From: an uncultured delta proteobacterium
GTDB lineage: Bacteria > Desulfobacterota > Binatia > UBA9968
Length of the DNA: 64,000 nucleotides
Reading direction: 5' to 3'
Assembly: GCA_963727625.1 (NCBI GenBank)
Contig: CAVSHR010000012.1
Coordinates: 576,001-640,000, forward strand
The first letter of the stretch is position 1; every line of letters starts with the position of its first letter. Positions 28,679 to 40,091 of this stretch are shown here, one piece after another. The position numbers were made by a program, and so were the translations under genes. A model generated the notes under the pieces. That model searched no databases. It saw nothing but the letters and a program-made list of their open reading frames with translations, and had not been told where the DNA came from.

Positions 28679-29209
28679 TCAATGACGGTCGAATGGAGCC
28701 TGCGGCTCGTAGTCGTAGCGCACCAGCCACCAGTGTCCGCTGCGGCGCGCGAACATCCAGAAGTCGCGGTAGTAATGGTCGCCTCCCCACCCATGAAACT
28801 TCTGATTGATCTCCACGACCGCCGAATTATTGACAATGTAGATCCGATGGATCCGATCCTCAAAACGGATCTGTCCAATTTTACGATCGCGAAAGGCACC
28901 AAGGGCCTCGGCGCGGATGCCGGCATAATCGATCATGACTTTCGGCTTGTCCCAAGCCCGCTGTAGCGCGTCGGCAGCATAGGCCGACATGACCACGTTG
29001 ATATCCCTCCGTTCCCAGCCCTGCCCAACAGTCATGATCAGGCGCACGATTTCTGCTTCGTCTTGGTTGCGCGAGCTGTATTGGGCGATCGGCACTCCGG
29101 CCCCATGATCAGCCCAGCTCGTTTTTGCAGCAAAGACCAGAATGAAAAACAATAAGTTGGTGGCCACCACCATTTTAAACATCTCAAACGCGAAGAGTTT
29201 CTTCATCAT
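28679..29209 (-). CDS. Exported NTF2/SnoaL-like (DUF4440-like) protein
   Basis: Signal peptide; WERRDINVVMSAYAADA and C-terminal RRSGHWWLV beta pattern. Confidence 0.65.
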   Translation of the reverse strand: MMKKLFAFEMFKMVVATNLLFFILVFAAKTSWADHGAGVPIAQYSSRNQDEAEIVRLIMTVGQGWERRDINVVMSAYAADALQRAWDKPKVMIDYAGIRAEALGAFRDRKIGQIRFEDRIHRIYIVNNSAVVEINQKFHGWGGDHYYRDFWMFARRSGHWWLVRYDYEPQAPFDRH

Positions 29210-29943
29210 TTGTCCCTTTCTCTTATATCTTCTATCCCTTTGGTGCTGCAGGGCTGGATCGATGAAACCGGCGGCAACTCATGAGGTGGCAAGAAGATCG
29301 CGAGGTAACTTTCGGCTGGATCAAGCGGCATGAATTCGATCTGCCGGTAACCCACGGCCTCGAGCTCACAACGCAAAAGGGCGGGCGGGGTTCCATGATG
29401 CTGGGTCGGCCGATCGACGTCGACGATGGCAACCCGCCCAGCGGTCACAAGGGCGGGTTTCAGCCGGTAGAAGAATTCATAAGGATTTTCGATCTCGTGG
29501 TAGACGTGCGATAGGAGGGCGACATCAACGGAACCGGGCATCAACTTGGGATCATTGGGCTGTCCGAGCACCAATTTGACGCCAACCATCTCTTCCTGCT
29601 CAAGCCGCGCGGCGAGCCGTTTGAGGTAATCCGGTCTGACATCCTGCGCATATATAGTGGCTGAAGGACCCAGACGCCGCGCGAGCCGAACCGTATAATA
29701 ACCTGCGCCCGCACCGATGTCGGCGATCCTTGGGCCCGGTGCGAGGCCGAGATGGTCCATGACCCGCTCGGCCTCTCCGGTTTTGTCTCGTGTCTTCTCA
29801 TCCGAATATGCCGGCGCAACAATCGCCGCCACCGGCCGATCGGGTCTCGGAAAGACCAGCCGAACCTGCAGCAGCGCATCGCCGGCCCATAACAGACCGA
29901 TAGCCCCCAACGTCGGGATGAGATAGCGATGGACGCACAGCAT
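29206..29943 (-). CDS. Class I SAM-dependent methyltransferase
   Basis: IADIGAGAGYYT, YAQDV and HVYHEI motifs; overlaps the next gene by ATGA. Confidence 0.88.
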   Translation of the reverse strand: MLCVHRYLIPTLGAIGLLWAGDALLQVRLVFPRPDRPVAAIVAPAYSDEKTRDKTGEAERVMDHLGLAPGPRIADIGAGAGYYTVRLARRLGPSATIYAQDVRPDYLKRLAARLEQEEMVGVKLVLGQPNDPKLMPGSVDVALLSHVYHEIENPYEFFYRLKPALVTAGRVAIVDVDRPTQHHGTPPALLRCELEAVGYRQIEFMPLDPAESYLAIFLPPHELPPVSSIQPCSTKGIEDIRERDK

Positions 29944-31239: not shown

Positions 31240-32892
31240 ATGCAAGCGACTGCTAAAGCGATCGGCGACCATTCTGCAGCAGAAATCAGGCAATTGGTTC
31301 GCGACAAGTATTCTGAAGTCGCGCTCAAGCCGGGCTCAAAATACAAGTTCAGGGTCGGTCGCGAGTATGCGATCGAGCTCGGCTATCCCCCTCAAAAGGT
31401 TCAAGCGCTTCCGGAGAAATTGGCTGAGGCCTTTACCGGCGTCTCTTCGTTCATGGCCCGTTTCGAGGATTTCGCTCCAGGAGATGTCGTCCTCGAGCTT
31501 GGATCCGGTGGAGGATTCGACAGCGCATTACTCGCCAAACGATTCGGCGCTGCGACAAAGGTCATTGGAGTCGATTTTTCTCTCGACATGATTCAAAGGG
31601 CAGCGCGATCTCTCGGCGCGCTGGAGCTTTGCCAGGTTAATTATACCCAGGCTGTGGCGGAGGAGCTTCCCGTCCGTGATAATTCAGTGGACTGGGTTGT
31701 CAGCAACGGGATCTTCAATCTCTCCCCGGAGAAGGAGAGAATCCTGTCCGAGATTCATCGGGTCCTAAAACCCAAGGGTCACGTGCTCTGTTCCGAGATC
31801 GTTCTCTATCAGGAGCCCACTCCGGAGGAGCGTCTCAATGAAGACGACTGGTTCAAGTGAATTGCCGGCGCAATGTCGGAAAAGTCTTTTCTGACCAAAT
31901 TCATCGAGGCTGGGTTCACCCGCATAGAGATCCTGGAGAATTCCGAGAATAAACGAACGCCAAACCGCAACGCCTACGTGGTTACTCTAGCCGCGCAGAA
32001 GGCGCCCGCGGCGTTACGGGCGCCTCTTGAGCAAAAAACCAAACCCGTCCTGAATCGGGAAAACGCAGCCGAAGTCTTGAAGGAATGTTGGGTTTTTCCG
32101 GTCGCGCCGGAGACCTGCAATCTGGCGTGCACCCATTGTCTTTATGGCGCTTCGCCACGATCGCGCAATCCTTACCGTGTCACGTCCGGCGAGCTGGGCG
32201 AATTACTGGCGCAGGTAAAATCCGTCGGTGCGAAACCGCATTTTTTGTTTACCGGCGGGGAGCCGACGCTGCACTCTGAACTCTACGATTTTCTACAAAC
32301 TTTTGATCGAGAGGGCTACTCGTTCCAGCTCATGACCAATGGAACTCGGATCCAGGAAGAAAGTGCCGAGCGTTTAGCGAAGCTGTCTCATCTGATCAAG
32401 GTGCAAGTATCACTGGAATCGGCGGACGCGAAAATCAACGATTCCATTTACGGCGCCGGACTGTACGGCAGGGTCCTCAAGGCAGTGAAAGTTCTCAAAG
32501 AAAAAAATGTCCCGGTGACACTGGCGGCAACAGCCATGGAGATCAACGAGCACGGTCTCTCCGCCATCGAAGAGTTGGCCGACGCCCAGGGAGTGGAATT
32601 GAAACAGATACTTTTGTACGAGCTCGGCGCAGCCAAAGAAAACGGCTTGAAACCGGCGCAGCAAATTCCAACCGACAACGGTCAAAGGGACAGAGAACTG
32701 ATGTGTGACAAAGGGGTCGCCTATTCCGAGGGAGCCTTCTACCCGTGTCCCGTGCTGGTCAAGGAGCCGCAGACGAAATTAGGCGATAGTTTAGAGCAGG
32801 CCTTGAGTCCGGAGTCACGCCGTAAAGTGACCGGGTTGCAGGAAACGCACGCTGCCTGTCAGGTTTGCCTTAAAGGCTCCACGTGAGCGTAG
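31240..32892 (+). CDS. Predicted selenoprotein: ArsM-like methyltransferase-radical SAM fusion, 550 aa, Sec207 and Sec549
   Basis: ORFs 31240-31860 and 31873-32886 are in one frame, split only by TGA in DWFK*IAGAM (ArsM W-x-x-C-x-x-GA). It carries ELGSGGGFD, CNLACTHC and TGGEP motifs. The C-terminus is HAACQVCLKGST*A-TAG. SECIS-like hairpins follow both TGAs. Confidence 0.8.
31858..31903 (+). promoter_or_regulatory. SECIS-like element 1
   Basis: Upper stem GTCGGAAAA/TTTTCTGAC (31875-31895, one G-U pair) with a GTC loop; TGAATT (31858-63) can pair with AATTCA (31898-903). Confidence 0.7.
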
Positions 32893-32896
32893 GCAA

Positions 32897-32913
32897 GCGC
32901 TCCGTAGGAGCGC
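32897..32913 (+). promoter_or_regulatory. SECIS-like element 2
   Basis: Perfect 7-bp stem GCGCTCC/GGAGCGC with a GTA loop, 17 nt long, after a 10-nt spacer from TGA 32884-86; no U-tract. Confidence 0.65.
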
Positions 32914-32967: not shown

Positions 32968-34029
32968 ATGAATTCAACCGACCCCAAGACTCGAATCGCC
33001 TATTTCAAGACCATCGATGGCCAAAGTCGTAGCGCGATGGCGACTCTCGATCCGGTCTGCCTCTACCTCGAGGTCAGCAACCAGTGCAACCTGTTATGCA
33101 AGACCTGTCCCATTACCTACGGCAAAGTGGAGGAACCCGCCTCGTTGAGCTTTGATCAGATCAAGCGCTTGGTCGCCCAATTCCCCACGGTCGAGCGCGT
33201 GGTGCTCCATGGTGTTGGAGAGCCGCTTCTCAATAGGGAACTGGCCAAAATTATTCTCTGGCTCAAGGGCAAGGGGATCTACGTTCTTTTCAATTCGAAC
33301 GGCACATTGATCAATAAGCGCTGGCGTGAAGCGCTCGTCGGATCGGGACTCGATGAAATCCGGCTCTCCCTTGACGCAGCAACGCCGGAGACTTTCGCGC
33401 GGGTGCGCGGCAAACGGCTCTTTGCCGTTGTCGTCAGGAATATCCAAGGCCTGATGGCCCTCAAGGCAGAGACAGGACTGCGCACACCGCTCGTTTCACT
33501 CTGGCTGACGGGGTTGAGAGAGACTCTGAAGGAGCTCTCGGATTTCGTCCGGTTGGGCCATTCTCTGGGGATCGACCGGGTATACCTCCAACGGCTAGTT
33601 TATTGGGACGGCAACGGCAATGATCGGCTGGCCCGTCCAGAGCAATCTCTGTTCAATTCCCTGCGAGAAGAAGGCGATCAGGTGATCAAGTCGGCGGAGG
33701 AATTGGCCCGTTCGCTGGGGATCTCTTTTGAAGCATCCGGAGCAACCACTCCTTCGACTAGCCTTGTGGGTGAAAACTTCGACCAACCCTGGTCAGCCTG
33801 CATGCGTCCCTGGACACTCATGTACATTAGCGCCCGGGGAAGCGCATTTCCCTGTTGCATTGCCCCTTTCTCGACGGCAGATCTAAGCCATCTCTCTCTC
33901 GGGAACGCGTTCACACAGGATCTGGCCTCCATATGGAATGGAAAGCGTTATCAAGAATTCCGCCGCCGGCTCCTGAGCGCTGAACCGCCTGAATGCTGCA
34001 AAGGTTGTGGCGCCTGTTGGAGTTTGTGA
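32968..34029 (+). CDS. Radical SAM/SPASM domain protein
   Basis: CNLLCKTC and GVGEPLL motifs; SPASM CMRPW...GSAFPCC...LGN..IWNG..CCKGCGAC. Confidence 0.92.
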   Translation: MNSTDPKTRIAYFKTIDGQSRSAMATLDPVCLYLEVSNQCNLLCKTCPITYGKVEEPASLSFDQIKRLVAQFPTVERVVLHGVGEPLLNRELAKIILWLKGKGIYVLFNSNGTLINKRWREALVGSGLDEIRLSLDAATPETFARVRGKRLFAVVVRNIQGLMALKAETGLRTPLVSLWLTGLRETLKELSDFVRLGHSLGIDRVYLQRLVYWDGNGNDRLARPEQSLFNSLREEGDQVIKSAEELARSLGISFEASGATTPSTSLVGENFDQPWSACMRPWTLMYISARGSAFPCCIAPFSTADLSHLSLGNAFTQDLASIWNGKRYQEFRRRLLSAEPPECCKGCGACWSL

Positions 34030-34033
34030 TCGC

Positions 34034-34768
34034 ATGAAGATCGAAAGCGGCGGCAAGAACAAAAGTCGAGCTCTGGTGGTCGTTGCCAAAGCGCCGTTAC
34101 AGGGTCTTGTCAAAACGCGGCTTTATTCCTACCTCAGTCCTGTAGACGCCGCCGGCCTCTACGAGTGTTTGCTCGGCGATATCGTCTCCAAGTTGGAGAG
34201 CTACGAAAAGAGCGAATTTTGGCTTGCCTTTGCGCCGGGAGGTGAAGACTATTTCCGCCGAAATTACTCGGCGATGAGACTGCTCGCTCAGCGCGGCAAA
34301 GATCTCGGCGAGCGGCTCCATCACGTTTTTGTGGATCTCTTCCGCAGGGGTTACAGCGAAGTCGTCATCGCCGATAGCGACAGTCCCACGGTGCCGCTTT
34401 CGTCTATCGATCAAGCCTATCAACAACTCAACGAACAAGAATGTGATCTGGTCCTGGGACCATCGGACGACGGCGGTTATTACCTCATAGGCCTCAAGCG
34501 TGCCACGGAACGGATTTTTTACGATATCCCGTGGAGTACCCATAGAGTGCTCGATACCACCTTTAAGAGGGCGGCTGAGCTGGGGTTAAGCGCGGGGCTT
34601 CTCCCTCCTGCCTATGACATCGACATAGAGGATGACCTCAGGAGACTGTGGAATGATTTTTTGGCTCTCAAGCACCTCCGGGCGCTAGCCCCGAGAACCT
34701 ATGACTACCTGAACAATGTCCTCGGCGCCGGATCTTTGCAGGTTCGTGCTTTAACCGAAATCGATTAG
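34034..34768 (+). CDS. DUF2064/TIGR04282-type glycosyltransferase-like protein (rSAM/selenodomain-associated)
   Basis: AKAP..G.VKTRL, QRGKDLGERL, DSDSP, LGPSDDGGYYLIG, IPWST and DIDIEDDL motifs. Confidence 0.9.
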   Translation: MKIESGGKNKSRALVVVAKAPLQGLVKTRLYSYLSPVDAAGLYECLLGDIVSKLESYEKSEFWLAFAPGGEDYFRRNYSAMRLLAQRGKDLGERLHHVFVDLFRRGYSEVVIADSDSPTVPLSSIDQAYQQLNEQECDLVLGPSDDGGYYLIGLKRATERIFYDIPWSTHRVLDTTFKRAAELGLSAGLLPPAYDIDIEDDLRRLWNDFLALKHLRALAPRTYDYLNNVLGAGSLQVRALTEID

Positions 34769-34778
34769 GAGGCTCAGA

Positions 34779-35318
34779 ATGGCCGCAGCCGTTAGTTCCG
34801 TCGGGATTCGAGACCTGGCTCTTTGGGCTGGTCTTTATCGAATTGCGCTCGGGATTATGTGGCTGCAAATGGCCTTACAAAAAGCGCCCTGGATCATGGG
34901 GCCCGAGGGAAGGCCCTACGGTTGGCTCTACGGTTACATCTGGAAGGAAATCAATAATCCGACCTTTACTTTTTACACCGAGTTTCTGAAAAATATAGTG
35001 CTTCCCAATTTTTACTATTTTGGTTTGTTGACCTTCGTCGTTGAGATCGCAATCGGGGTGTCACTGGTGCTGGGTTTTTTAGTTCCTCTGATCGGCGGTC
35101 TCGGCGGCGCCCTCATGCAAACCAATATCATGCTCGGCAGTTACAGCATTCCGAGCGAGTGGTTTTGGCTTTGGCCCATGCTGATCGGCAGTCACGTCAT
35201 CTTCATGATGGGTAGAGCCGGCCGCCGTCTCGGATTGGATGGCCTCCTTTCAAGCTCTCTTGAGCACTCCCCTGATACAGGAGGCAAGTTGAGACGATTC
35301 TTGACCTATGTCGTGTAG
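34779..35318 (+). CDS. DoxX/TQO small subunit (DoxD)-like membrane protein
   Basis: RIALGIMWL..ALQK, EIAIGVSLVLG, EWFW and AGRRLGLDG motifs; AGGAGG RBS. Confidence 0.8.
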   Translation: MAAAVSSVGIRDLALWAGLYRIALGIMWLQMALQKAPWIMGPEGRPYGWLYGYIWKEINNPTFTFYTEFLKNIVLPNFYYFGLLTFVVEIAIGVSLVLGFLVPLIGGLGGALMQTNIMLGSYSIPSEWFWLWPMLIGSHVIFMMGRAGRRLGLDGLLSSSLEHSPDTGGKLRRFLTYVV

Positions 35319-35347
35319 TTGCATTCGCGCAGTCGGGCTATAGCAGG

Positions 35348-36853
35348 ATGATCCGATTCATTACCAGAAACAAAGTCTGGGTATTAGGACTGCTCTCCGC
35401 AGCCATCTACGGCATGAATTTGCGCATGGCTGACGTGCTGGTCCGCCTTGAGATCCTCGATTCTGCACCGGACCCCATAGCGTCTTACTTGATCCAAATC
35501 GCGCCTCTGAGTCTAATCTATTTTCTGGCCGTGTGGATGACGGCACGTGCGCAATACGCCAAGAAGACTTTGACGCCCATTATCCTGTTTGCGCTGTTGT
35601 TCCGACTGCCTCTGATCCTTTTAGAGCCCGCCCTCTCCAGTGACGTCTATCGCTACCTTTGGGAAGGGAAAGTGCAAATTGTTGCCGGAATGAATCCCTA
35701 CGTCGTGCCGCCGGCGGACGACCGCCTTGCCTCTCTACGGGATCAAGCGATTTATCCTCACATCAATCGCAAGGAGGCGCCGACGATCTATCCTGCAGGC
35801 GCGCAGCTCCTTTTCGCCCTACTACACAAGGCCGGCGTCGAAAGCCCCCAGGCATTCAAAGCTCTGTCCCTTGTTGCCGATGCTCTATCGCTGCTTCTCC
35901 TGCTTTTAATCCTTAAGCGACTCCATTTGCCGCTTGACCGCGTTATCATCTACGCGTGGAATCCTCTCCTTATCTATGAGTTCTTTTGGAGCGGCCACCT
36001 GGAAAGCTTCATGTTGCCTCCCCTGCTGGGCTTTATCTATTTTACCCTTCGGGGTTGGGTGCTAGCTGCCGGTGTCGCCCTCGGCCTCGCGACAGCGATT
36101 AAACTAGTCCCCCTGTTTCTTCTGGCAACCGTGCCTCCGGGCAAGAGGATTAGGACAGTAATCCCTTTTGTCTTTGTTCTGGGGCTTGCTTATATCTTTT
36201 ACGCCGCAGCGGGGACGAGGATCCTGGGCTTTCTTCCAACCTATTTCTCTGACCCATACGAGATTTTCAATCTCGGCATCGTCCAACTAGGTTTGTTACG
36301 GGTGGTGCAGTCATTTTCATTTCCCGTCTCTTGGGTTCGTAACATTCTTCTCGCCCTCCTGCTTGCGATCCTAATGATGATCTCACGGCGCGCCCCCAAT
36401 TCCCCTGCGGACATTATCGGGAGAAGCTACGCGACCTTTAGCGCCTATCTCTTGCTCATCTATCCCGCTTTTCATCCCTGGTACTTTTGTGCGCTTGTGC
36501 CCTTGTTATGCTTCGTCCCGTCGCGAGCTTGGATCTGCTTCTCCTTGCTGCTCCCTCTGTCTTACTTTAAATACCTCACGCCAGACGGAACGATGCCATT
36601 GTGGATTACGCTCGCAGAATTTGCCCCTTTGTATCTGCTCCTGGTCCGGGAACACGGCCGGTTTCCAATTTGGCTAAGAAAGCGCCAGGCGTCCAGCGGC
36701 GCTATAAACGAGAAATGCGACGGCAAAGAAATTCCAAGCCGCGAACTAAAAGAGCGCCTCCTCTTAGACGATCAGACCGGAGAATTACTGCCTTGCATGT
36801 CGGCGATAACCGCCTTAGCCACAGTCAGGCGAAGCCGTAAAAGAAGGGAATAG
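35348..36853 (+). CDS. GT-C membrane glycosyltransferase (GT87/DUF2029-like)
   Basis: LSSDVYRYLWEG, NPY..PP, PTIYP, YAWNPL, GHLE and HPWY motifs. Confidence 0.85.
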   Translation: MIRFITRNKVWVLGLLSAAIYGMNLRMADVLVRLEILDSAPDPIASYLIQIAPLSLIYFLAVWMTARAQYAKKTLTPIILFALLFRLPLILLEPALSSDVYRYLWEGKVQIVAGMNPYVVPPADDRLASLRDQAIYPHINRKEAPTIYPAGAQLLFALLHKAGVESPQAFKALSLVADALSLLLLLLILKRLHLPLDRVIIYAWNPLLIYEFFWSGHLESFMLPPLLGFIYFTLRGWVLAAGVALGLATAIKLVPLFLLATVPPGKRIRTVIPFVFVLGLAYIFYAAAGTRILGFLPTYFSDPYEIFNLGIVQLGLLRVVQSFSFPVSWVRNILLALLLAILMMISRRAPNSPADIIGRSYATFSAYLLLIYPAFHPWYFCALVPLLCFVPSRAWICFSLLLPLSYFKYLTPDGTMPLWITLAEFAPLYLLLVREHGRFPIWLRKRQASSGAINEKCDGKEIPSRELKERLLLDDQTGELLPCMSAITALATVRRSRKRRE

Positions 36854-36857
36854 CTCA

Positions 36858-38435
36858 GTGGCAACCGGCATTTTAGAATCAATTTTTTACTACAGCCTCG
36901 GCGCGCTCTACCTTCTGTGCCTGAGCGGGCTCTTTCTCTACGGCACCAACTGCTATGTTCTGCTCCTGCTCTTTCGCCGAAACCGCAGCAAAGGCGAGAA
37001 GGAGTATCGCGACGCTCTCGATAACTTTGAGAACTCCCCCTGGAAAAACGACCTCCCTCAGATCACGGTACAACTGCCGATCTACAACGAGCGCTATGTT
37101 GTCGCTCGGCTCATGAAAGCTGTCAGCGCCCTGGATTACCCGCGCGACCGATTGGAGATTCAGCTCCTCGACGACTCCACCGATGATTCCGTGGAGATCA
37201 TCAGCCGGCTGGTCGCGGATTATCGGAAAGAGGGCTTCCCTATCGTCCATCTCCAGCGAGCAACCCGACAGGGCTTTAAAGCAGGCGCGCTTAGGGAAGG
37301 CATGGAGACAGCGCGTGGAGAATTTTTCGCCATTTTCGATGCCGACTTCGTTCCCCCGCCTGACTTTCTGCGCAAAACCATTCCTTACTTCTTGAATGCC
37401 AAAGTCGGTATGGTGCAGGCGCGGTGGAGTCACATCAATCCCAACTATTCGCTTCTGACACGCGCGCAGTCGATTGGAATCGACTCGCATTTTTCCATCG
37501 AGCAAGGCGCCCGAGCCTGGTCGGGCCTTTTTCTCAACTTCAACGGCACCGCAGGTGTATGGAGACGGCAAGCCATCGTTGAAGCTGGAGGCTGGCAAGC
37601 CGATACTCTCACCGAGGACATGGACCTAAGCTATCGAGCTCAACTAGCGGGTTGGCGGATGAAGTATCTCTTGGAAGTGGCGTGCCCGGCAGAACTGCCG
37701 GTGCAGGTGGCTGCATTTAAATCGCAACAGTTTCGTTGGGCAAAAGGCTCCATCCAAACGGCACGCAAAATAATGCCCGCTCTGCTTAGGGCGCCCTGCT
37801 CAAATTTCGCCAAGTGGCAGGCCATGCTCCACATGACTCACTACGTCATCCATCCGCTGATGCTGGTCACTATTTTGCTTTCCTATCCGGTAATCCTTAT
37901 CCAGGATACTGAGTCAAGCCCCTGGCTGTTGGCCGGCGCTTTCATTTTATTTCTATCGGCGACGTTGGCCCCCTCGACTTTGTATCTTGCGTCGCAAAGA
38001 TTTCTCTACCCGGACTGGCGCACCCGGATACGTTGGATCTCGCTTATGACACTGATCGGCACGGGCCTCTCGTTAAACAACGCGCGAGCGATTTTGGAAG
38101 GGCTGTTCCTTTCCGGCGGAAACTTCGTGCGCACTCCGAAGTTCGGCGTCTTTCCTGGCGACGATTTGCGCGGACGGATAATAGGCTATGGTCTCAAGAT
38201 GGGTATGCTGCCATGGCTCGAGTTGGCTATCGGAGTTTATGCGCTATTTGCACTGACTCAAGCCATTAAAACTCCGGGCATACTGATCAGCCCATTCCTG
38301 CTGATGTACACGTGTGGTTTTTTCTATATCGCGCTCAAGGGAATCGGCGAATCGCTGGACTGGAAGATCGGCAAGTACCGACCCCCACCACCGCCCACCG
38401 CATCCACTGTGATCGAGCAACACGATGGCACCTGA
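36858..38435 (+). CDS. Processive GT2 glycosyltransferase (cellulose synthase-like/CslA-type)
   Basis: TVQLPIYNE, LDDSTD, GFKAGAL, FDADF, TLTEDMDL and QQFRWAKG (D,D,D,QxxRW) motifs. Confidence 0.92.
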   Translation: MATGILESIFYYSLGALYLLCLSGLFLYGTNCYVLLLLFRRNRSKGEKEYRDALDNFENSPWKNDLPQITVQLPIYNERYVVARLMKAVSALDYPRDRLEIQLLDDSTDDSVEIISRLVADYRKEGFPIVHLQRATRQGFKAGALREGMETARGEFFAIFDADFVPPPDFLRKTIPYFLNAKVGMVQARWSHINPNYSLLTRAQSIGIDSHFSIEQGARAWSGLFLNFNGTAGVWRRQAIVEAGGWQADTLTEDMDLSYRAQLAGWRMKYLLEVACPAELPVQVAAFKSQQFRWAKGSIQTARKIMPALLRAPCSNFAKWQAMLHMTHYVIHPLMLVTILLSYPVILIQDTESSPWLLAGAFILFLSATLAPSTLYLASQRFLYPDWRTRIRWISLMTLIGTGLSLNNARAILEGLFLSGGNFVRTPKFGVFPGDDLRGRIIGYGLKMGMLPWLELAIGVYALFALTQAIKTPGILISPFLLMYTCGFFYIALKGIGESLDWKIGKYRPPPPPTASTVIEQHDGT

Positions 38436-38450
38436 GAAGACTCCTTCGAT

Positions 38451-40091
38451 ATGAGATTCTTAAAAATGTCCTTCCGCGCCAACTGCCTGATACGAGCGGC
38501 GGCCCTTCTGTTTCTGCTTGCGACCCTGACGCCGCTCGCTGTGGTCCTGGGGCAGAAACTTTTGCCAAGCCCGTGGCCGACCTACCGCGGCGATCTCAAG
38601 CGCACAGGGCGAAGCGATTATAAAGGTCCAACGACCAATCAGCTCCGCTGGGTTTTCTCGACTGGGCTCGCCGAGAAGCGTGGAGGCATCGAGACAGATC
38701 CCGTCATCGGTCCTGACGGAACCGTTTACATCGGCGCCAACAACGGAATTATTTACGCGTTGAACCCTGAAGACGGCTCGATACGCTGGGTTTTTCCCAC
38801 GGCTTTTGACACCTTCGCGATCTATTCCAGTCCGAGCGTCGACCAGCAGGGACTCGTCTACTTCGGCGCCAAAGATGGCAACGTTTATGCGCTGAGGGCG
38901 CCAAAACGCGGAATCATGGGGGAATTGGTCTGGTCTCTCAACCTCGGCACTACAATACAGACTTCACCGGCTTTTACACCGGACGGAACTCTCGTGATTG
39001 GTGCCGACGACTGGGCTTACTATGGGATCGCACCTCCCCGGGACGGGACTGGCCCCAGGATAAAGTGGCGCTTCCAAACGCAGGGTACATTGATTACGTC
39101 GCCGGCCGTCGACTCTGACGGGACGATTTTCGTGGCGTCGATGGATGGAAAAATTTATGCTCTGGAGCCGCCAAAGGATGCGAGCCAGCAGCCGGTCAAA
39201 GTCCGCTGGAGCTTTTCTTCGGGCGCGCGCGACGATCGGGGAGGCTTTGAAAACGCGCCCGCCGTCGACAAGCAAGGGACTCTTTACATGGGCGGAAATG
39301 ACGGAATTTTTTACGCTCTGGACAGCAAGACAGGCAAAGTCAAGTGGACGTTCGATGGCGTCGCGCGTTCGGGTTATCGAACCTACGCGATCTTTTCTTC
39401 TGCCGCGATCGGCCCGGATCGGACAGTATACTTTGGTGGGAAGAACGGCGATCTTTACGTAATTCGCCAGCAGCAGGCTTTCTTTCGCTCAGGCCCGCAA
39501 GTCCTCTGGCGGTACAAACTGGGAGCAGGGATTCAATCTTCTCCGCTCCTCGCGGCTGACGGAACCGTTTATCTTGGTGACGAGCGTGGCACCTTGCACG
39601 CCATCAGACCGCCTGCTTCCGGAGAAGCGGGAACAACCTTGTGGAAATTTTCCACAAAGGGAACATTGATCTCTTCCCCTGCTCTTGCTGCTGACGGAAC
39701 GCTCTACGAAGGTTCCATGGACGGGAAACTCTATGCCTTTAAGTCTGGGGCCGCAAAGCCCGGCGCCGAGGGTCCTTTCTCAGGAACCTGGTATGGAACC
39801 TATGAAAGCCAGCTAATCTCTGGGCAGGTGAGAGCTGTCCTTCGACAAGAAGGCACACAGGTTTGGTCCGCTTGGTTCCTTGAGGGAGTAGGGCGCGGAG
39901 AGGGACAGGCAACTGCCCTGGACAACCGTCTGATATTTTCACTGCCCATAAAAACGGCCCGCTGTCGGGGAACTGTTCGCGGCGAGGGTCAAAGGGACGG
40001 GAATCGAATCCGCGTCGATGTCCGGATTGATCAATGCGGAGGAAAAATCGTAGGCGGTAAGCTCACGATGCGCAATAGCTTGAAAAGGTAA
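38451..40091 (+). CDS. Exported PQQ-like beta-propeller repeat protein with C-terminal beta domain
   Basis: Signal peptide, WPTYRGD, repeated SSP...DGT.Y.G..DG..YA..W units. Confidence 0.88.
   Translation: MRFLKMSFRANCLIRAAALLFLLATLTPLAVVLGQKLLPSPWPTYRGDLKRTGRSDYKGPTTNQLRWVFSTGLAEKRGGIETDPVIGPDGTVYIGANNGIIYALNPEDGSIRWVFPTAFDTFAIYSSPSVDQQGLVYFGAKDGNVYALRAPKRGIMGELVWSLNLGTTIQTSPAFTPDGTLVIGADDWAYYGIAPPRDGTGPRIKWRFQTQGTLITSPAVDSDGTIFVASMDGKIYALEPPKDASQQPVKVRWSFSSGARDDRGGFENAPAVDKQGTLYMGGNDGIFYALDSKTGKVKWTFDGVARSGYRTYAIFSSAAIGPDRTVYFGGKNGDLYVIRQQQAFFRSGPQVLWRYKLGAGIQSSPLLAADGTVYLGDERGTLHAIRPPASGEAGTTLWKFSTKGTLISSPALAADGTLYEGSMDGKLYAFKSGAAKPGAEGPFSGTWYGTYESQLISGQVRAVLRQEGTQVWSAWFLEGVGRGEGQATALDNRLIFSLPIKTARCRGTVRGEGQRDGNRIRVDVRIDQCGGKIVGGKLTMRNSLKR

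Follow-up and report, generated by a model that had tools for sequence, protein, structure and literature searches.

A predicted double selenoprotein, annotated as two genes, joins an ArsM-like methyltransferase to a radical SAM domain in an uncultured member of the Binatia

On the forward strand of a 64,000-nucleotide stretch of DNA from an uncultured delta proteobacterium (Desulfobacterota; Binatia; UBA9968; assembly GCA_963727625.1, contig CAVSHR010000012.1, positions 576,001–640,000; hereafter the window, numbered from its first letter), two neighboring annotated genes lie in one and the same reading frame. The first open reading frame (ORF) has 206 codons and runs from an ATG at 31240 to a TGA at 31858–31860; the second has 337 codons and runs from an ATG at 31873 to a TGA at 32884–32886. 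Four codons, ATT GCC GGC GCA (IAGA in translation), separate the first TGA from the second ATG. If both TGAs are read through, the frame extends to a TAG at 32890–32892 and has 550 codons, with predicted selenocysteine (Sec, U) at residues 207 and 549 and with Ala550 (32887–32889) as the last residue. We conclude that the two annotated genes are very probably a single gene (31240–32892) for a 550-residue double selenoprotein, in which an ArsM-like methyltransferase is fused to a radical S-adenosylmethionine (SAM) domain. An earlier note on this DNA, made from its letters alone, had proposed a fused polypeptide with one Sec. The shared frame across the first TGA is as that note described, and its Sec207 is supported by the data presented below (homologous loci, ArsM structures, and Sec machinery). 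The second Sec, U549, is missing from its text, and the end coordinate that it gave, 32892, is that of the TAG closing the longer frame beyond the second TGA.

The methyltransferase domain spans approximately residues 1–255 (31240–32004; all features of the gene are on the + strand). It is assigned to the ArsM-like class I SAM methyltransferases by Pfam (Methyltransf_31, Methyltransf_25, and Methyltransf_11), NCBIfam, alignments with PDB sequences, and Foldseek, and it carries the SAM-binding motif VLELGSGGG (31489–31515). All of the top twelve Foldseek matches are ArsM or AS3MT chains; 4fr0, 6cx6, and 5evj come first, and human AS3MT (8xt7) is twelfth. Their E-values range from 2e-16 (4fr0) to 2e-14 over approximately 240 columns. 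A linker of residues 256–283 (32005–32088), which consists of variable alignment columns and has a predicted local distance difference test (pLDDT) score below 50 at residues 259–267 in the full-length model, leads into a radical SAM domain with a SPASM/twitch fold (32089–32883). This second domain matches PF04055 with 82.6 bits (cut-off 29.5). Modeled by itself with AlphaFold2 (AF2), the radical SAM half has a pLDDT of 91.6 and a predicted template modeling (pTM) score of 0.90, and its Foldseek matches are anSME (4k37), SkfB (6efn; TM-score 0.76), BlsE (7vob), SuiB (5v1s), EpeE, MoaA (1tv7), and CteB, with E-values between 7e-13 and 2e-9. The CxxxCxxC motif (C293, C297, and C300; 32116–32139) and four C-terminal cysteines, C489 (32704), C503 (32746), C540 (32857), and C543 (32866), occupy invariant columns. 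The protein ends with …C-Q-V-C-L-K-G-S-T-U-A, and the spacing C489-x8-G-x4-C503 … C540-x2-C543-x5-U549 is one that we take to recall the SPASM motif.

The comparative set consists of 74 loci: the window, two species-level genomes, 69 metagenome contigs, and two relatives that have the radical SAM part only. The species-level genomes are metagenome-assembled genomes (MAGs), one of a Candidatus Binatia (L033) and one of a Candidatus Acidiferrales (L034). Every complete homologous gene (26/26) has 545–551 codons, exactly two TGAs, and no other stop. The question whether homologs are always two genes, raised in the earlier note, therefore came out for the fusion, as the two parts are joined in frame in all 26.

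The first TGA (31858–31860) is conserved without exception. The motif [ED]DWF-x-?-I[AV]GA is covered in 65 loci, and the queried codon is TGA in every one of them. In a phmmer search against PDB sequences, FK-U-IAGAMSEKSFLTKFIEAGF aligns with GE-C-LAGALYNNDFIRLARKVGF of Chlamydomonas ArsM (CrArsM, 5evj) and, in the same region, with GE-C-LGGALYLEDFRRLVAEAGF of CmArsM (5eg5); 4fr0 spans the same stretch, and human AS3MT (8xt7) was also matched. In 5evj and 5eg5, U207 falls in the Cys column of GEC-L-[AG]-GA. Because FK-U is aligned to GE-C, U207 stands on the last conserved cysteine of ArsM, which is the position that had been claimed for it, and the predicted motif is U-I-A-G ('UxxG'). The segment directly after it, SEKSFLTKFIEAGF, corresponds in the alignment to the helix and strand of ArsM, also in agreement with the earlier claim. 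In the full-length AlphaFold model, a helix (residues 214–223) and two strands (226–236 and 245–254) follow U207 before the linker.

Behind the first UGA, a hairpin of 9 bp with the loop GUC (31875–31895) lies within the coding sequence. We refer to it as selenocysteine insertion sequence (SECIS) 1. Positions 31875–31883 pair with 31887–31895, the loop is 31884–31886, the stem begins 14 nt after the UGA, and the distance from UGA to loop is 23 nt. The hairpin is thus present as it had been described; a lower stem that includes the UGA, proposed with it, is weak and is kept only loosely, with 88.5 per cent of cells paired. Across 42 distinct homologous sequences, the nine pairs are formed in 99.7 per cent of 378 cells; five pairs are invariant, and in three the only variation is from A-U to G.U. 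Third-codon positions in the 3′ arm (TCT/GGT, TTT, and CTG) are invariant, whereas those outside the stem vary freely.

The second TGA (32884–32886) is followed by one codon and a true stop in nearly all loci. All 36 aligned database proteins that represent the radical SAM half end at one residue, …C-x-[VI]-C-[LK]-[KR]-G-[SA]-[ST]. At the DNA level, 58 loci extend at least 15 nt beyond this end motif (two more stop at a contig edge), and 56 of them continue with TGA, one GCN or GGN codon, and a stop. The codon is GCG in 39, GCT in 8, GCC in 5, GCA in 1, GGA in 2, and GGG in 1, and the stop is TAG in 32, TAA in 19, and TGA in 5. In the two exceptions, L070 and L090, the S-T-U-A-stop region is missing, and L090 passes from CLKG directly into hairpin sequence; these 3′ ends are deletions or assembly faults. 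Nine distant homologs that align to the end (26–30 per cent identity; P0105, P0106, P0117, P0127, P0128, P0147, P0148, P0150, and P0194) read A-C-x-T-C-x-x-x-G-x-x-C and have Cys at the U549 column, with two to three or more residues beyond it. By alignment, this is a Sec/Cys pair for the predicted second site.

A second hairpin, SECIS 2 (GCGCUCC-GUA-GGAGCGC; 32897–32913), lies in the untranslated RNA after the TAG, with 17 nt from the UGA to its loop. All 43 distinct 48-nt downstream sequences contain a hairpin of 4–8 bp at 15–20 nt after the UGA, and 42 of them have a G within the first two loop positions. The mean folding free energy is −9.6 kcal/mol, compared with −2.2 kcal/mol for shuffled sequences. 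The stems differ from locus to locus and still pair (CGCUCC/GGAGCG, GCGCCC/GGGCGC, GGUGCUC/GAGCACU, CCGCUCC/GGAGCGG, and GGCGC/GCGCC). A covariance model built from nine seed sequences and searched at E-values up to 1 recovers the site in 36 of 40 sources and misses L085, L087, L099, and L102, in which a per-sequence search does find hairpins. In 259 kb, the model has no further match apart from one echo of this site on the reverse strand, and within the window it has a single match. In the resulting alignment, which was fitted to the model (and so favors the structure) and contains the nine seed rows and one reverse-strand row (L062), 91.6 per cent of cells are paired, and two-sided changes occur in three of seven pairs (18 cells). 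Its covariation score, 0.194 versus 0.091 in shuffles, is reached by none of 500 shuffles; slid controls show 36–69 per cent pairing. RNAalifold predicted no pairs in an ungapped alignment of 18 SECIS 2 sequences, because loop and spacer lengths differ between the sequences.

According to the available portion of a 2026 review (PMC13188914), bacterial SECIS (bSECIS) elements have a stem of 4–16 bp, a loop of 3–9 nt, a G in the first two loop positions, and a distance of 16–37 nt from the UGA. SECIS 1 (9 bp, GUC, 23 nt) and SECIS 2 (7 bp, GUA, 17 nt) both lie within these limits. If SECIS 2 acts as predicted, the gene provides a naturally occurring bacterial example of a penultimate Sec with a SECIS located wholly in untranslated RNA. 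Mammalian thioredoxin reductase ends in G-C-U-G-stop, with its penultimate Sec on a flexible tail. In recombinant work by Arnér and colleagues in 1999, a bacterial SECIS was reportedly placed behind the stop codon. The window protein would have in common with thioredoxin reductase the penultimate Sec on a tail, whereas fold and organism are unrelated and its untranslated SECIS would be natural.

The genome encodes the machinery for decoding UGA as Sec. We found tRNA-Sec (76.7 bits; called as SeC with anticodon TCA by ARAGORN), selA (607 bits), selB (397 bits), and selD (377 bits), all above their cut-offs, with the three sel genes clustered on another contig, so that the check for selA, selB, selC, and selD proposed in the earlier note had a positive outcome. 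There, selA, selB, and selD stand in a row (G000:C5:715112–719466; L009, L010, and L018), and tRNA-Sec is located approximately 50 kb away (C5:768830–768920; L001); selD itself has one in-frame TGA and is a predicted Sec-containing SelD. All four other genomes with the gene or its radical SAM module have selA and tRNA-Sec as well. In the decoding that we propose, SelB and Sec-tRNA(Sec) would read the UGA at 31858–31860 under the guidance of the 9-bp hairpin within the coding sequence, giving Sec207, and the same machinery would read the UGA at 32884–32886 under the guidance of the GC-rich hairpin beyond the true TAG, giving the penultimate Sec549. Three more in-frame TGA junctions in the window (38433–38453; 8493, on the − strand; and 62213) were considered as Sec sites and rejected: behind two of them, a separate protein begins with a signal peptide, and the third is an antisense shadow frame.

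A highly improbable alternative is that only the first UGA encodes Sec, and that the TGA at 32884–32886 is a real stop whose hairpin stabilizes the transcript or regulates the next gene. The hairpin does sit in the gap of approximately 80 nt before that gene, and TGA acts as a normal stop here, as 17 of the 51 long frames in the window terminate with it. However, nothing would maintain, in sequence that is not translated, a GCN or GGN codon followed by a stop, as is seen in 56/58 loci across the four Ala codons, and the nine distant homologs continue past a Cys at this very column. The hairpin also keeps the bSECIS spacing and loop G; it has no T-tail and was not called as a terminator.

Even less probable is the public annotation itself, by which the methyltransferase ends at the TGA at 31858, with the ATG at 31873 as the start of a separate radical SAM protein. 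A possible start (ATG or TTG) is found at the equivalent position in 51 of 65 loci, and databases hold approximately 65 clusters of 'radical SAM proteins' of 302–342 residues that start there. Yet the codon varies (ATG 23, TTG 28, CTG 10, CTA 2, CAG 1, and ACG 1) and is CTG, CTA, CAG, or ACG in 14/65 loci, which means that no start is conserved at this position. The 15 nt before 31873 read without any purine-rich, Shine-Dalgarno-like run, which bears out the earlier remark on the missing ribosome-binding site. The four codons between the ORFs are, moreover, under amino-acid constraint: the first is ATT in 42 loci and ATC in 23; the second GCC in 57, GCG in 4, GCT in 3, and GTC in 1; the third GGC in 61, GGT in 3, and GGG in 1; and the fourth GCT in 31, GCC in 24, GCA in 7, and GCG in 3. 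Synonymous change with kept amino acids behind an in-frame TGA is the signature to be expected of translated sequence. The split would also cut the ArsM fold, as the helix of residues 214–223 and the strands of residues 226–254 belong to the methyltransferase domain according to PDB alignments, NCBIfam, and the model. The public records that we encountered all split the gene into a truncated methyltransferase and a separate protein, because gene callers stop at both UGAs; the second half is named 'radical SAM protein' at NCBI and 'sulfatase maturation enzyme AslB' or 'AdoMet-dependent heme synthase' at JGI. Under the single-gene reading, approximately 70 loci are affected by this misannotation, in two phyla-level lineages and numerous metagenomes.

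We give almost no credence to the TGAs being assembly errors or marks of a decaying gene: the window may stem from a MAG, which may contain errors, and L070 and L090 do differ at their 3′ ends, but both TGAs recur in the two other genomes and in dozens of independent metagenome contigs down to 50–55 per cent protein identity, and none of the 26 complete genes has another stop or a frameshift. The suspicion of a sequencing error, voiced in the earlier note, is thereby answered. Among the matches listed from other public sequencing runs, whose contigs cover only parts of the stretch at a depth of 2–4, contigs of three runs cover the first TGA and contigs of two cover the second, and there is no difference at either site; no RNA data set is listed among the runs. 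That UGA is read as Trp or Gly through a variant genetic code, as in some bacteria, can be dismissed with similar assurance, since TGA ends a third of the long frames (17/51), both sites align with Cys and not with Trp or Gly, tRNA-Sec (TCA) and selA, selB, and selD are present, and SECIS-type hairpins stand at both sites.

Several results count against a double selenoprotein at this locus. When the 81 nt from 31850 to 31930 are folded as a single sequence, z is 0.13 and 107 of 200 shuffles fold equally well; the folding check suggested in the earlier note thus recovered the hairpin and not a stability beyond that of shuffles. Because the single-sequence fold gave no signal, the case for SECIS 1 is a comparative one. 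No SECIS 1 pair changes on both sides among the 42 distinct sequences, so what the alignment indicates is RNA-level conservation, not covariation. A protein search over lengths of 302–963 residues returned no protein spanning both halves and no Cys-containing full-length fusion, and its 69 clusters all cover the second ORF only (302–367 residues). As far as sequences tell, the Sec/Cys evidence comes from more distant relatives and not from the fusion itself. Finally, selA is present in 38/41 genomes of the order, and the three that lack it are 60, 65, and 93 per cent complete (counts over 41 genomes or 40 relatives include one genome, G005, that is flagged unpublished). The Sec trait is near-universal in the order, and the machinery is consequently necessary but not discriminating.

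The closest curated families to the methyltransferase half are themselves selenoproteins. Of the NCBIfam models, NF041537 (ArsM/AhpD) matches best, with 188.9 bits over residues 12–247 (cut-off 510), followed by NF047649 (methyltransferase/UXPK-star; 184.4 bits, cut-off 460) and NF041536 (ArsM/DUF2284; 169.7 bits, cut-off 575). Together with the ArsM model NF008823, these four ArsM-type matches cross residue 207 (residues 8–270), cover the methyltransferase part only, and are all below their cut-offs; no model of NCBIfam release 20.0 fits the whole protein. Like the window protein, members of NF047649 have Sec in U-x-x-G, Gly for the Cys of S-N-C, and, a few residues from the stop, a second Sec. 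They have a short tail only, however, whereas the window protein has a radical SAM domain of approximately 290 residues in between and the tail S-T-U-A-stop. Likewise, NF041537 and NF041536 combine an ArsM-type UxxG domain with a second domain that carries further Sec, but that domain is AhpD or DUF2284 and not radical SAM. Two UXPK-star double selenoproteins occur among the genomes at hand (L037 and L038, in G340 and G437), with …WYQ-U-IGGA… and tails of …GGAUAPK-stop and …GGTUKPK-stop. Judging from such sequences, the class as a whole would combine a Sec inside the domain with another on a C-terminal tail.

With ArsM and AS3MT, the window protein has the fold and the last-Cys column in common; it differs from them in lacking the other three cysteines and in its fusion to radical SAM. 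V68 replaces the Cys of the ArsM GCGNP motif, and G157 (31708–31710) replaces that of SNC; both residues are invariant in 27 family members. The N-terminal Cys region of ArsM did not align with the window protein. Gly at the SNC position is also found in Sec-containing ArsM-like proteins of relatives, including L037 and L038.

Parts of this picture have been described before. In its available portion, PMC13188914 lists arsenite methyltransferase as a selenoprotein with the motif UxxG, credited to Fomenko et al. 2007; to Haft and Tolstoy 2025 it credits three ArsM-type multi-Sec fusions along with several families of the 'UXX-star' kind; among radical SAM selenoproteins, it gives TIGR04167 (GxxU) and TrsS. 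The fusion of methyltransferase and radical SAM does not appear in the available portions of that review or of a 2022 review (PMC9312934). Our literature search found no description of the fusion; Haft and Tolstoy 2025 and Haft and Gwadz 2023, which deal with the closest families, may mention it. What the earlier note proposed has more precedent than its text suggests: Sec at the ArsM position and double selenoproteins with ArsM fusions are already known (PMC13188914). The fusion to radical SAM fits no curated model. The gene is a new domain architecture (a radical SAM fusion with a 'U-A-stop' tail) within a recently described selenoprotein group, and adds radical SAM to the small set of ArsM-type multi-Sec proteins.

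The fusion is patchily distributed. With this query, it was not found in 24 genomes of the same genus, elsewhere among the 40 relatives searched, or in a 400-genome sample of the phylum; the genome-contig scan, which reaches close relatives only, gave two loci. A profile-free search of 1.84 billion representatives returned six close relatives at E-values of 1e-30 or lower and many distant ones. The Acidobacteriota-type MAG (L034) has the fusion at 70 per cent identity. The patchy occurrence and this copy suggest horizontal transfer of the operon.

In the window, the gene is followed by a gene for a radical SAM/SPASM protein of 353 aa (32968–34029, + strand; PF04055 and PF13186), which succeeds it in most loci with enough DNA, and then by a gene of the TIGR04282 (DUF2064) 'arsenosugar biosynthesis glycosyltransferase' family (34007–34768, + strand; 173.2 bits, cut-off 134). 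Further conserved partners are two membrane proteins of 179 and 501 aa and a family 2 (GT2) glycosyltransferase of 525 aa (34779–38435, + strand). The 501-residue protein (35348–36853) is polytopic and has no Pfam or NCBIfam match; by eye, it may resemble a GT-C type glycosyltransferase. A second class I methyltransferase of 245 aa is encoded upstream (29206–29943, − strand); in many related loci, it is directly upstream and on the same strand as the selenoprotein gene. Where enough DNA is available, the kept order is a TIGR04282-like gene (in some cases), the 245-aa methyltransferase, the selenoprotein gene, radical SAM/SPASM, TIGR04282, the 179- and 501-aa proteins, and GT2. TIGR04282 also directly follows radical-SAM-only forms.

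The same genome has, on another contig, a cluster (L127; G000:C9:367000–385000) with an ArsM-like gene (411 aa), ArsS (TIGR04167; 447 bits, no TGA), TIGR04283, and TIGR04282; it also holds a Pit-like transporter and an FAD (flavin adenine dinucleotide)-dependent enzyme, and prfB adjoins it. By analogy, the window operon appears to be a parallel to this canonical arsenosugar-type cluster, with the methyltransferase and the radical SAM enzyme as one protein and with a second TIGR04282. The conserved partners suggest organo-metalloid chemistry.

Like the second half of the window protein, ArsS belongs to the radical SAM enzymes and can have a Sec close to the C-terminus; it is paired with ArsM and TIGR04282/TIGR04283. 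It has a C-terminus of its own and is encoded adjacent to ArsM, whereas the window domain has a SPASM/twitch-like C-terminus and is fused. In arsinothricin synthesis, according to the consulted portion of a preprint (bioRxiv 10.1101/2024.02.01.577332), the Cys-rich C-terminal RCCLKC tail of ArsL, a radical SAM enzyme, binds As(III) and the product goes to ArsM. The resemblance of that tail to the C-x-x-C-L-K-G-S-T-U-A of the window protein is short and may be due to chance. Compared with SPASM/twitch enzymes, the window protein would end two residues past the third position of C-x2-C-x5-C, which is the predicted Sec; Sec would thereby be placed in a cysteine motif that normally builds auxiliary Fe-S clusters.

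On this analogy and context, we tentatively propose, with less than even confidence, that Sec207 and Sec549 jointly hold a metalloid that is methylated and radical-alkylated on one polypeptide. The enzyme would handle a soft metalloid, most likely As(III). The Cys pair of ArsM binds As(III). Because three of the four ArsM cysteines are lost, Sec207 could not chelate the substrate alone; Sec549, on a tail beside the CxxC of the putative auxiliary-cluster region, would supply a second selenolate and could ferry the substrate between the sites of methyl transfer and radical chemistry. A single polypeptide would in that case do the job of the ArsM and ArsS pair (arsenosugar) or of the ArsM and ArsL pair (arsinothricin), and the conserved partners (TIGR04282, membrane proteins, and glycosyltransferase) would take over its product. 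If this metalloid hypothesis is right, the gene is a one-protein version of these pairs, which make C–As bonds, and may point the way to new organoarsenic natural products. A more specific scheme strikes us as rather unlikely in its entirety: Sec549, as the third Cys of C-x2-C-x5-C at the putative auxiliary-cluster site, would be an Fe-S selenolate ligand or a swinging arm and would form with Sec207 a two-selenol relay that methylates and radical-alkylates arsenic, or perhaps antimony or selenium, and the product would start, via the operon, an undescribed membrane-linked pathway to organo-metalloid glycoconjugates in uncultured soil and sediment bacteria.

A number of results speak against such a function. 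The ArsM model NF008823 scores 167 bits, below its cut-off of 263, and three of the four canonical ArsM cysteines are missing, including the As(III)-binding pair, with the last kept as Sec207; of the 'ArsM' label in the earlier note, the fold thus stands on the Foldseek matches and family membership does not. The radical SAM domain scores 44 bits against ArsS (TIGR04167; cut-off 300), and ArsL (NF040542) has no match at the locus. Pfam SPASM (PF13186) gives no match to the C-terminal 90 or 290 residues even at an E-value of 10. The full-length model has a pTM of 0.50 and low confidence at residues 536–550, and no distance between Sec207 and Sec549 can be derived from it. No arsenic resistance genes were seen beside the operon, in a survey that included no search aimed at them.

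Parts of the protein also occur in other combinations. The radical SAM module with a terminal U is found without the methyltransferase in L023, L024, L077, and L093. In P0067, P0069, P0070, and L099, the module is fused to an N-terminal TusA-like domain (PF01206); an aligned homolog, P0068, has no PF01206 match on record. The module of this group ends in …C-K-R-G-S-[ST] and then TGA, and three of four lack the usual TusA cysteine. As for the methyltransferase half, the genome of the window contains a second ArsM-like gene (G000:C9:271662–272333; L031), which has one in-frame TGA and is 36 per cent identical to residues 12–234 of the window protein, and single-TGA ArsM-like genes of this kind are present in 6 of the 40 relatives searched.

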